64,000 nucleotides of DNA from the NCBI RefSeq assembly GCF_028641065.1, contig NW_026576497.1:1-64000 (forward strand). The letters run 5' to 3'. Positions 13,579-59,323 of the stretch are shown one piece after another. Both the position numbers and the translations under genes were made by a program. This DNA comes from Leucoraja erinacea. Lineage: Eukaryota. Position 1 is the stretch's first letter. Each line of letters begins with the position of its first letter. Below the pieces are notes generated by a model, which had not been told where the DNA came from, did not search any database, and was given only the letters and a program-made list of their open reading frames with translations.

Positions 13579-13648
13579 ATGCACGCGCCCGGAAACGGTC
13601 CGGTCTTTGCTATTTATTATACTATTCTTGCGGTCTTTGGTGTTCCAG
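13579..13648 (+). CDS. GPR139-like GPCR gene B, coding exon 1
   Basis: MHAPGNGPVFAIYYTILAVFGVP+G, 70 nt, donor GTAATG; splices in phase 1 to 15455 giving GVP-A-NLVTIVILS (TM1). Confidence 0.88.
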
Positions 13649-13874
13649 GTAATGTTTTCCGCAGATGAAGGTTTCGCGTTTGTCACTTCTGTACCTATCT
13701 GCCATTTCAACACCTTTCATTTGCCAAGTATTGCCGCGCCTTCACCCTTTTTCCAGCTTTATCTCCGCTACTACAATCGTTCTTCAGCGGGCTCCGTCTG
13801 TAAGCGTCTCTTGTCCATTGTCCCTTCCCTTCACTGATGCTCCATGACCCGCTGAATTCCTCTTTGTTTTTATT

Positions 13875-14281
13875 ACTCGCTTGAATTTAAAAGATTGATT
13901 ATAGGAACTTACAAAATTCTTAAGGGGCTGTTCAGGCTAGATGCAGGAAGATTCTTCCCGGTGTTGGGGAAGTCCAGAACAAGGGGTCACAGTTTAAGTA
14001 TAAAGATGAAATCTTTTAGGACCGAGATGAGAAAAAACATTTTTCACACAGAGAGTGGTAAATCTGTGGAATTCTCTGCCACAGAAAGTAGTTGAGGCCA
14101 GTTCAATGGGTATATTTAAAAGGGAGTTAGATGTGGCCCTTGTGGCTAAAGGGAGGGAGAAAAGGCAGAGGGACAGGATACCGAGTTGGATGATCAGCCA
14201 TGATCATATTGAATGTCGGTGCAGGCTCGAAGGGCCGAATGGCCTACTCCTGCAACTATTTTCTATGTTTCTATGTTTCTG
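13875..14281 (+). mobile_element. CR1 3' fragment in the GPCR-B intron
   Basis: CR1 3' end and tail. Confidence 0.88.
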
Positions 14282-14796
14282 TGTTACGGGAGAGGACCAG
14301 TTACATATGTTTTAAGCACATCCGCTTTTACTGCTGTCCCCCGCTTCATCCATGCCTCGCGACCAATTGGTCACTCGTGCATATATAGAATGGTTTTACT
14401 GATAAGCTTCGTCAGTTGTTTCCCAATTAATTCCAATTGTGCGGTCTGTACAGTGTCTGTACATTTCCCCGCCATGGTTTTCAATGGGTGCTGCGGTATG
14501 GGACACAGGTTTGTAGACTAATTAGCTTGATATAAATATAAATTCTCCCTAGTGTGTGTAGGGTAGTGTTTGTGGCCGAGGATCACTGGTCGGAGCGGGC
14601 TCAGTTGACCGAAGGGCCTGTTTCCACGCTGCATCTCTAAACTACACTAAACTAAACTAAACTGAACCAAACTGAGCTGCACTAAACTAGACGGAACCAA
14701 ACATAACCAAACAGAACTAAACAAAACTAAACAGATAAGAAACGTCGACAATCCATTGCTTCCACAGATGCGGCTCAGAATCTGATGTCGTGGGGC

Positions 14797-15305
14797 CGGG
14801 GCACAGTGACGCAGCGGTAGAGACGCTGCCTTACAGCGCCAGAGGCCATGGCTTGGTCCTGACTACGGATATTATCTGCAAGGAGTTTGCAGGTTTTCTC
14901 TTTGACCGCCAGGGGCTGCTCCCGTTTCCTCCCACATCCCAAAGACGTGCAGGTTTGTCGGCTAATTGGCAAATATCGTAAACCAAATATCTATCCTGTG
15001 TGGTATACACCGATCACTGGTCGACGCGGACTTGGTGGGCGATGAGTCAGTTTCCACACTGTCAATGGGACAGGGGCATATCTCTCTGCCACAGAAGGCA
15101 GTTGAGGCCACAGTTCATTGGCTATATTTAAGAGGGAGTTAGACGTGGCCCTTGTGGCTAAAGGAATCAGGGGGTATGGAGAGAAGGCAGGTACAGGATA
15201 CTGAGTTGGATGATCAGCATGATCATATTGAATGGCGGTGCAGGCTCGAAGGGCCGAATGGCCTCTACTCCTGCACCTATTTTCTATGTTTCTATGCATC
15301 TATGA
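14797..15305 (+). mobile_element. V-SINE followed by a CR1 tail in the GPCR-B intron
   Basis: tRNA head GGCACAGTGACGCAGCGGTAGAG and V-domain; CR1 3' end at 15081-15305. Confidence 0.75.
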
Positions 15306-15454
15306 GTTTAACGAGGATATCGTTATCTTTCCATAAATTGATTATTCGAAATCTGTAAGCAATCTGTTAATGTGATGAATTGTCTACCCATGTCATGATT
15401 AATTGGTCACAGTTCAACAGTTACGTTATTAACTACTCTGCCTCCCACTTGCAG

Positions 15455-56411: not shown

Positions 56412-57094
56412 CTTTCCTTTAAGGGAGCAGACAGCTGGCTTGGCCGAAAGTTGCGTTCTGCACTGCTCTGATCGAATTGGAGCTGCGCTGATACAACTTC
56501 GACAGTAGGTTGACACGGCAGCGCCTCTACTTCCATAGAGGTTTTAAGAGATCCTGCATTCACCGAATCTCCAACTAAATATCGACATGTACTGCAGAAA
56601 GTATCCTGACTGCTTACTCATATGGCATTCCTAACGCACAGAAACGCAATAAACGACATAGGGATGGAATCAACACACTTCGTCTCAGGCAAGTAATTCG
56701 TTCTCCCCATCTACGTCGCCCCAACAGCCATCCGGGCCGTGCCCATTTCTAGACTCTGAAACGCGACACTCCCCACGACCCTACCATTCGCCGGGGATGT
56801 CCTGCCGTGTTTGACTTCCCAAAATGCAACACCTCTCACTTATCATCATTAAAATTCATCAACCATTGCTCTGCCTATTTGTTGAACTCCTTCTGCAGTT
56901 GTATAGGGCCCTAGTGAGACCACACCTGCAGTATTATTGTGTGCTGTTCTGGTCCCCTAATTTGAGGAAGGACATTCGTGCCATTGAGGAAGCAGCGTAG
57001 GTTTGCAAGGTTATTTCCCGGGATGGCGGGACTGTTATATGCTGAGAGAATGGAGCAGCTGGGCTTGTACACTCTGGAGTTTAGAAGGATGAGT

Positions 57095-57335
57095 CCGCGG
57101 GAAGTGCGCACGTCAGTACGGCCTCAATGCGGCTGCGGGCCGGCGGGCAGTTGCCGCGCGGAATCTTTGTACAAGGTCAGTTTTTCGGAGCCCAGCGCGA
57201 TGTCGGTACCAGCTCCGCACAACTCCATACGGCTCCGGCGATCGAAGTGGGACCGGCCCCGCGTGGCCGTACGGCTCAAGCGACCACGTTAGGTCGCGCT
57301 TGCCGCATGGGGTCGCATGCTCGTGGGACAGGCCC
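57095..57335. mobile_element. MITE fragment (second copy at 4270-4395)
   Basis: Shared sequence ending GTGGGACAGGCCC followed by TTA, consistent with a Harbinger-like TIR and TSD. Confidence 0.55.
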
Positions 57336-57830
57336 TTAAGTCGCCTACTCCGCATAGTCAGAAAACAACGAACAATCAGCGATGAGAGGGATTCATGAAG
57401 CATTAATACTATGCAGATGTCTCATTTTATCATGGCTGTCTCATTTTAAAGTAACGTTGCATTTCATTCTGGCACAAGGCAGTGGAAGCTTGATTGATCT
57501 CACATCTATTTCATATAGAAGAACAATGATATAAACAGCTTCAGCATTGAATGAACTGGATCATTGATGATCATCCGAATTCAGACCCCATTTCCTGCTT
57601 CTTCCACATACCCCTTGATCCCATTATGCACAATAAATTCGACCAATTCTATTGTGAATATAGTGAAAGGCATTTTGTTCTCGTTTCAACTCATTCCATC
57701 TGGCTCCTATCCAAGGAATGACCCTTAGAAAGTTCTCGATCAGCAACGTCACCCATTCCTTCTCTCAAGAGACGCTGCCTGTCCCGTTGAGTAATTGCAG
57801 CATTTTCTGTCTAGCTTCGGTTTAAACCAG

Positions 57831-58335
57831 CATAGAAACATAGAAACACAGAAATTAGGTGCAGGAGTAGGCCATTCGGCCCTTCGAGCCTGCACCGCCA
57901 TTCAATATCATCATGGCTGATCATCCAACTCAGTATCCCGTACCTGCCTTCTCTCCATACCCTCTGATCCCCTTAGCCACAAGGGCCACATCTAACTCCC
58001 TCTTAAATATAGCCAATTAACTGGCCTCGACGACCCTCTGTGGCAGAGAGTTCCAGTGATTCACCACTCTCTGTGTGAAAAAAAATATTCTCATCTCAGT
58101 TTTAAAGGATTTCCCCCTTATGGATAGGCATATGGATGAGAAGGGAATGGAGGGTTATGGTATGAGTGCAGGCAGGTGGGACTAAGGGAAAAAAGTTGTT
58201 TGGCACGGACTTGTAGTGCCGAGATGGCCTGTTTCCGTGCTGTAATTGTTATCCTTAAGCTGTGACTCCTTGTCCTGGACTTCCCCCAACATCGGGAGCA
58301 ATCTTCCTGCATCTAGCCTGTCCAACCCCTTTAGC
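57831..58335 (-). mobile_element. CR1 3' fragment interrupted by an opposite-strand LINE tail (about 58120-58248)
   Basis: CR1 tail; the insertion is flanked by TTA. Confidence 0.8.
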
Positions 58336-59284
58336 ATCTGCAGTTCTTTGCTGCACATTTTGTCTCCGACACAATCTGGGCTCGAGTCCAACGTTGCATT
58401 GCAAACGGTATTTCCCCGCTTAACTGAACGGAAACACCTGCGGATTCTGTGCAGAGATTAACGAGCGACCTCCTGTGGCCTGTCGGAGATAGTGACTGCT
58501 AACCCAATGGCTCCAATATCTTGCAAGATGCTGATATCTTCTACTGGCAACGCGCGCAGCAATTGAATACTTACAGCTAGTTCCGATTTAAACTTTAATT
58601 GCTAAAGCGCAACAAACTGCTGGCGAAACATAGCGACTTGGTGGCATCTCTGGAGAACATGGATGGGTTATGTCTTAGCTCCAGCAGCAATATAGATTGC
58701 ATATGATCATATGATATATGCACAACCCTGCCCCCAGAATGCTATACATAGATATAAGAGATATGGAATATCAGCAGTTTGAATGCATCGGGTAATACGC
58801 GCAGAGATAGGTCCCAAGAAACTAAAATTTAACAAGGTCATTAGAGATAGGAGCAGAATTAGGCCATTCGGTACATCAAGTTTACTCCGCCATTTAACCA
58901 GGATATATGACTCCCTCCTAACCCCATTCTCCTGCCGCGCAGGAAACGGTTGAACAAGAGCCACTTGTATTGGAAGCTAGATACTAGTTTAATGTTTAAC
59001 GCCATTGGCCAGAGATTTCCGCAGCGTCGGACTTGAATGAGCAATTTTACACTTTATATTTTATTGGTCTAGATCATGGAATTGAACCAAATCGCGTCGT
59101 TTGAAGTTTGCTTAGTTTCTCTGGTTCACCAGGATGCGGTGGCTGACAAGTATATCCGAGGTTTCCTGTCTGTGTGTGTGTGTGTGTGGCTGCGCGCCTA
59201 TTGGCGCTCTGCACATGGCTGCCCCAACTGAGCTCTTGAACCCCTGGGAAACACAGACAATGACAAGAAAGGCTCACCACAGGC

Positions 59285-59323
59285 GGTTATTGCACTGCGC
59301 AGAGACTGCTTCCAATCACTGTG
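59285..59323 (-). other. 23-bp RSS of V5
   Basis: CACAGTG, 23-nt spacer, GCAATAACC. Confidence 0.92.

Follow-up and report, generated by a model that had tools for sequence, protein, structure and literature searches.

Intact GPR139-like receptor genes lying between V and D/J segments of a little skate T-cell receptor alpha/delta locus: predicted loss by V(D)J joining

What becomes of intact genes that lie inside a locus which lymphocytes cut and rejoin? The question is raised by bases 1–64000 of contig C1316 (95,064 b; little skate, Leucoraja erinacea, genome 2.19 Gb), here termed the window, in which genes for G-protein-coupled receptors (GPCR-A to GPCR-D) lie among V segments of T-cell receptor (TCR) type. 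The original prediction for this DNA was that V(D)J recombination would delete or invert these receptor genes in a manner dependent on the V used. The reading favored here, with a probability of about 0.72, is that the window is a D-proximal part of a TCR alpha/delta V array, that RAG joins of V4, V5 or more distal same-strand V segments would excise the GPCR genes, and that these genes are likely passengers. Intact GPR139-like genes would then sit between V and D/J, and a signal-joint circle would carry them off.

The window was scanned for recombination signal sequences (RSS) with up to two mismatches in the heptamer, two in the nonamer and three in total. Exactly three sites were found (Table 1), each with a 23-bp spacer and on the minus strand, and all aim at lower coordinates, as had been noted. 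A stricter count gave three observed sites versus a mean of 0.2 across 30 simulated sequences. Every one of the three adjoins the 3′ end of a V-set exon. V1, V4 and V5 each display a leader exon with a GT donor and a spliced open frame of 114–117 amino acids (aa); a V-set exon, a split leader and a 3′ 23-RSS are the attributes of a TCR alpha/delta V array. V5 has 78% identity to V4, and these two segments are present only on C1316. A database search for longer relatives of V1 yielded two gar proteins and nothing else. That V4 and V5 are leaderless relics was rejected, as leaders were found for both, and an inverted D or J within the window was rejected as none was found there.

GPCR-B, C and D show spliced open frames with GT/AG borders, and all match 7tm_1, the only Pfam family matched by the GPCRs of the window. 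They are positioned between V1 and V4, i.e. 3′ of V4 and V5, and GPCR-A is 3′ of the window V segments. This is the arrangement originally described, with the qualification that only exon 1 of GPCR-A, left of V1, is in the window; exon 2 is left of the window and is open at C977:138080–137166 on an overlapping contig. GPCR-C is 68% and GPCR-D 42% identical to GPCR-B. GPCR-D represents another subfamily (~42% to B/C), and its best copy shows an identity of 58% or less among the 130 matches scored.

The GPCR-B sequence is identical to a Leucoraja erinacea protein named 'probable G-protein coupled receptor 139'. Database searches gave 1,734 relatives, and among the 120 listed, those named are from sharks and rays; the sole solved relative (PDB) is human GPR139 (E-value = 2.7e-12). 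By these searches the receptor belongs to a chondrichthyan GPR139-like family, a lineage-specific expansion that is only distantly like GPR139. An olfactory receptor (OR) identity was considered and rejected: there are two coding exons, and 7tm_1 is the only Pfam match.

D, J and C segments are found on overlapping contigs to the left of the window. C977:138647–173149 aligns to window positions 10–37485 in the same orientation, and the two differ by 2.5 mismatches per 100 (4 blocks of at least 2.5 kb). Because this resembles the mismatch of the other overlapping contig pairs of the locus (2.9, 2.9 and 3.6 per 100), C977 is most likely the other haplotype of C1316. Ddelta, Jdelta and Cdelta are on C977, ~83 kb left of the window. 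The minus strand of C977 displays two D segments, each between a 12-RSS and a 23-RSS, at 55854 and 54661, six Jdelta-like motifs at 54333–34777 (with a recognisable RSS in 4 of 6), and a Cdelta-like exon at 30259–29906 with a transmembrane (TM) exon; the first Jalpha is also on this contig. C875, which overlaps C977, has 95 Jalpha with 12-RSS and a Calpha-like exon (4565–4209), all minus, in the 197 of 237 kb of the contig covered by the count. The labels Cdelta and Calpha were assigned by motif and position, without a named database match, and a profile search of the genome with Pfam DUF1968 (PF09291) gave no Calpha match. The two contigs together thus hold the downstream components of a TCR alpha/delta translocon: D with 12/23-RSS, Jdelta, Cdelta with TM exon, a Jalpha array and Calpha. 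By way of the C1316/C977 overlap, D, J and C share the strand of V1, V4 and V5 (all minus). The left-hand position on which the original prediction depended is therefore what was found; a position of D/J to the right was rejected, as none is present in C1316:64001–95064.

Under the 12/23 rule, a same-strand V joins by deletion and an opposite-strand V by inversion. With D/J on the left and in the same orientation, a join of V4 or V5 to Ddelta, Jdelta or Jalpha would delete GPCR-A to D. A V1 join would delete GPCR-A and keep GPCR-B to D. The computed V4/V5 excision interval is ~137–142 kb to Ddelta and 192–322 kb to Jalpha. It holds A, B, C and D together with two further open GPCRs, so that excision circles carrying whole GPCR genes, as had been foreseen, are in agreement with the geometry.

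The V array was followed further by tiling of contigs: C1316–C928 and C928–C924 show same-strand overlaps, followed by C989 (inverted) and then C1211. The stitched path is 571 kb and is a mixture of two haplotypes. It displays 25 GPCR exon-2 sequences, 21 of them open for at least 280 aa, and 55 intact V with RSS, 45 on the J strand and 10 opposite; the V and GPCR counts are lower bounds, as the RSS-anchored finder missed some V found by tblastn. Contigs C1519, C1433 and C1206 and two V of C15 are unplaced on the path. The orientation of C989/C1211 depends on a ~50-kb C924–C989 block. Next to this block, a segment (C924:136384–144139 and C989:142243–150010) has opposite orientations in the two overlapping contigs; one V would be deletional on one haplotype and inversional on the other, or the inversion would be a misassembly.

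Among the 55 intact V, 41 are on the same strand and distal to GPCR-D, and their joins would delete A to D. Thus the predicted loss of A to D by V4/V5 and retention of B to D by V1 stand as geometry, but this loss is not specific to V4/V5; as read from the map, removal of GPCR-B to D would be a common outcome of joins and not a hallmark of these two segments. The number of open GPCRs lost would be 0, 1, 3, 6, 10, 11, 16, 17, 20 or 21 according to the V used. A V-dependent GPCR dosage is therefore retained from the original prediction as a graded loss in geometry, but 32 of the 55 V (32 of the 45 on the J strand) would remove all 21. Because of this, the expected state of an allele is mostly ‘all gone’ and not finely graded. 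The 465 kb of the path nearest to D contain all 21 open GPCRs, and the distal V block of C1211 contains none. This block (C1211:52134–106611) is a tandem array of 28 closely related V, 27 of them intact, with ~2 kb spacing; no GPCR was found on C1211.

In mammals, both alpha alleles are usually rearranged. Repeated Valpha–Jalpha joins are expected in the skate because of the ~95 Jalpha; such joins are described as receptor editing in PMC5931798. By analogy, repeated joins and biallelic rearrangement would push alpha-beta T cells toward losing the whole GPCR set. We infer that the GPCRs are unlikely to be needed after rearrangement, because most rearranged alleles would lose them. V4 and V5 are presumably used, and the loss is presumably immaterial to T cells. 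The receptors would be likely passengers, with a selected function in cells in which this locus stays unrearranged.

Genes within a rearranged interval are of a known kind, because ORs are found in TRA/TRD and trypsinogens in TRB; what differs here is the receptor family, the number of genes and their D-proximal position. Human OR10G2 and OR4E2, and mouse Olfr1507–1509 (between TRAV1 and TRAV2), are among distal TRAV segments (PMC4574546). As in the skate, these are class A GPCR genes among V, and by their geometry joins of more distal V would delete them. The mammalian loci have two to three distal ORs, lost only with TRAV1 use, whereas the skate locus has ~21 open two-exon non-olfactory genes, about 10x the number, which are D-proximal and would be lost with most V. 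Trypsinogen genes inside TRB (8 in human, 20 in mouse, 5 in cattle) are likewise a non-TCR multigene family long kept in a rearranging TCR locus (PMC2685407). These are secreted proteases in blocks, in contrast to the skate receptors, which alternate with single V segments and are partly co-duplicated with them. The skate path, where intact non-TCR genes sit between V and D/J (21 of 25 open), thus has the form of a locus with passenger genes. The elasmobranch antigen receptor complex (AgRC)/shark TCR alpha/delta translocon resembles the skate locus in its V with 23-RSS, D with 12/23-RSS, Jdelta, Cdelta, many Jalpha and Calpha, and in V segments of both orientations. In the portions of PMC12227049 covered, which describe the elasmobranch AgRC, GPCRs are unmentioned in text or table S1; the table lists only Ig (immunoglobulin), TCR and a few marker genes. 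A literature search gave nothing on this receptor family or on GPCRs in a shark TCR locus, with the nurse-shark locus literature partly covered.

A genome search for the receptor family gave 1,399 first-look candidates, of which 131 were scored. Among the best GPCR-B matches (at least 64%), 21 of 22 are on V contigs or beside V segments of C15. A dense family array is found on C15 at 44.0–45.1 Mb. Within that array region (44.0–45.14 Mb), V segments with a 23-RSS on the plus strand occur at two places, 45.018 and 45.029 Mb, and Ig C1 exons are clustered at 44.81 Mb. GPCR and V have been co-duplicated as a unit, as shown by C977:104345+110520 versus GPCR-A plus V1, and the unit is also repeated between C1316 and C928. 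The likely origin of the interleaving is expansion of the V array within a large array of GPCR genes, with tandem duplication of GPCR+V units accounting for part of it.

Several observations weigh against the favored reading. The ratio of nonsynonymous to synonymous substitution (dN/dS) among A, B and C is 0.18–0.19, i.e. the sequences are conserved; in six other paralogue pairs it is 0.27–0.53, and it is 0.04–0.69 in eight pairs presumed to be allelic, which show few changes. Because dN/dS is low, the receptors are taken to be under purifying selection and are functional somewhere, and a status as recent dead hitch-hikers was rejected (dN/dS ~0.19). A FastTree tree with midpoint root was made from 77 sequences, i.e. 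49 of 57 genomic exon-2 frames (at least 280 aa) and 28 hand-picked database hits. GPCR-A, B and C group with sawfish and thorny-skate sequences in a clade of batoids, the sister of which is a clade of sharks, and a sawfish sequence is sister to GPCR-B (support 0.89); the receptors are thus old. The near confinement of the A/B/C subfamily to V-bearing contigs fits a lymphocyte-linked role as well. The link of V4/V5 to D/J, moreover, depends on contig overlap and not on one contig.

Of the other explanations, the one that survives best, although unlikely, is that early thymocytes make the receptors during the time in which the V array is open, and that recombination acts as a one-way switch, or simply ends a by-product transcription. 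V arrays are transcriptionally open before rearrangement, which counts for this explanation, as does the crowding of the open genes near D and their absence from the C1211 block, so that most joins would remove the set. Single copies appear weakly needed, which counts against it. GPCR-C is open in the window, but its copy at C977:166787–167712 is frameshifted by a 1-base and a 4-base insertion, which could reflect either a null allele or a fault of the assembly; another GPCR, at C1316:80363, is broken. Because of these two cases, germ-line loss of single GPCR copies seems tolerated. A sequencing-run search with GPCR-B exon 2 gave no RNA run among the matches listed. Reads of 4 of 12 listed raw-read RNA runs (tissue unspecified) were mapped to window positions 45000–59780. 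The two bins that cover GPCR-D exon 2 had a mean depth of 0–0.12, and those covering V4 and V5 had a depth of 0; as these four runs show no T-cell signal, they are uninformative on lymphocyte expression.

More broadly, editing of a second receptor repertoire by V(D)J recombination in skate T cells is improbable. In such a scheme alleles would keep 0–21 GPR139-like genes by V and join type, so that TCR choice would determine the chemosensory or homing receptors open to a clone, or a switch would strip thymocytes of them. The graded form of this idea, in which T cells make the receptors and the choice of V sets which of up to 21 genes an allele keeps, is more doubtful again. The geometry does yield a loss graded by V, purifying selection acts on the GPCRs, and the A/B/C subfamily has kept to the V array. 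Set against this, most deletional V would remove every open gene, repeated joins (PMC5931798) would drive alleles toward full loss, and ~1,400 family candidates are present elsewhere in the genome. A V-graded dosage is further weakened because non-TCR genes in mammalian TCR loci are already known and because inversion routes exist. The inversion of opposed V and J, which formed part of the original prediction, has such routes in the 10 opposite-strand V and in an inverted J–C cassette described below. The least probable explanation, that C1316 is a separate duplicate (orphon) with V4/V5 out of line with D/J, could draw on the start of the window at a contig end, on differences in V1-family copy structure between C1316 and C977, on a right-hand join to C928 that runs through a tandem family, and on the scatter of TCR V across megabases in other elasmobranchs (PMC12227049, table S1), but C1316/C977 divergence equals that of the other overlapping pairs (GPCR-B dS 0.034 versus 0.012–0.05 in seven pairs), same-strand overlaps at both ends of C1316 give a consistent tiling, and C977 by itself links A, B, C and V1-type segments to D/J/Cdelta.

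The analysis yields a map of a functional TCR alpha/delta locus in a batoid. Some 20 conserved orphan receptors there would vanish somatically in most T cells, a larger and independent counterpart of the mammalian olfactory genes, and V usage would predict exactly which GPCR genes a cell retains. Should T-lineage cells express the receptors, a repertoire of receptors other than those for antigen would be shaped by recombination, and for this the literature searched describes no parallel. If they are not expressed there, the locus places a constraint on where the GPR139-like family can act.

Table 1. V segments, RSS and GPCR genes of the window
Feature	Position	Strand	Details
GPCR-A exon 1	1647..1716	-	23 codons + 1 base, GT donor
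V1 23-RSS	5282..5320	-	heptamer and nonamer both perfect
V1, TCR alpha/delta-type V	5321..5760	-	leader 5760-5721, V exon 5625-5321, open 114 aa
V2, frameshifted V1 copy	8307..8743	-	V piece 8613-8307; RSS degenerate
V1-like upstream DNA and first leader codons	9862..10313	-	interrupted by repeat DNA; without V exon or RSS
GPCR-B, GPR139-like	13579..16362	+	exons 13579-13648, 15455-16362; 325 aa
GPCR-C	26747..32145	+	exons 26747-26816, 31223-32145; 330 aa
GPCR-D	45398..48810	-	exons 48810-48747, 46311-45398; 325 aa
V4 23-RSS	54062..54100	-	mismatches: heptamer 1, nonamer 2
V4	54101..56411	-	leader 56411-56369, V exon 54411-54101, open 117 aa
V5 23-RSS	59285..59323	-	mismatches: heptamer 0, nonamer 2
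V5	59324..61730	-	leader 61730-61688, V exon 59634-59324, open 117 aa

The V2 counterpart on C977 (146889–146581) has an open frame and a perfect RSS, whereas V2 in the window is broken. The V1-like piece at 10313–9862 is taken to be the segment originally termed V3. As written, V2 and this piece would be unable to rearrange.

A plus-strand V–J–C cassette is found between Ddelta and the GPCR-rich array on both haplotypes (C977:89156–97100 and C875:222890–231060). Its V is Ig-like with a 23-RSS (C977:89156–89447, plus strand), and no leader exon was clearly found for it. A single J with a 12-RSS is at C977:91459, with no D between V and J. The C exon is 35% identical to Cdelta, the TM exon has an Arg/Lys/Asn pattern, and a weak search gave no longer database relative of the C exon. 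The cassette is apparently a second, inverted, complete TCR-delta-like unit. In the literature searched, in which the nurse-shark locus is only partly covered, no paper on an inverted cassette was found. A minus-strand V of the window could join the cassette J by an inversion of ~52–107 kb, and the GPCRs would then be kept on the chromosome.

The most D-proximal V, at C977:62759–63037 on the minus strand, is also Ig-like. It may be of the TAILV type, a label that occurs in table S1 of the elasmobranch study. Its sequence is 52% identical to the cassette V, and its next relatives are V segments of Ig clusters at 32–40%.

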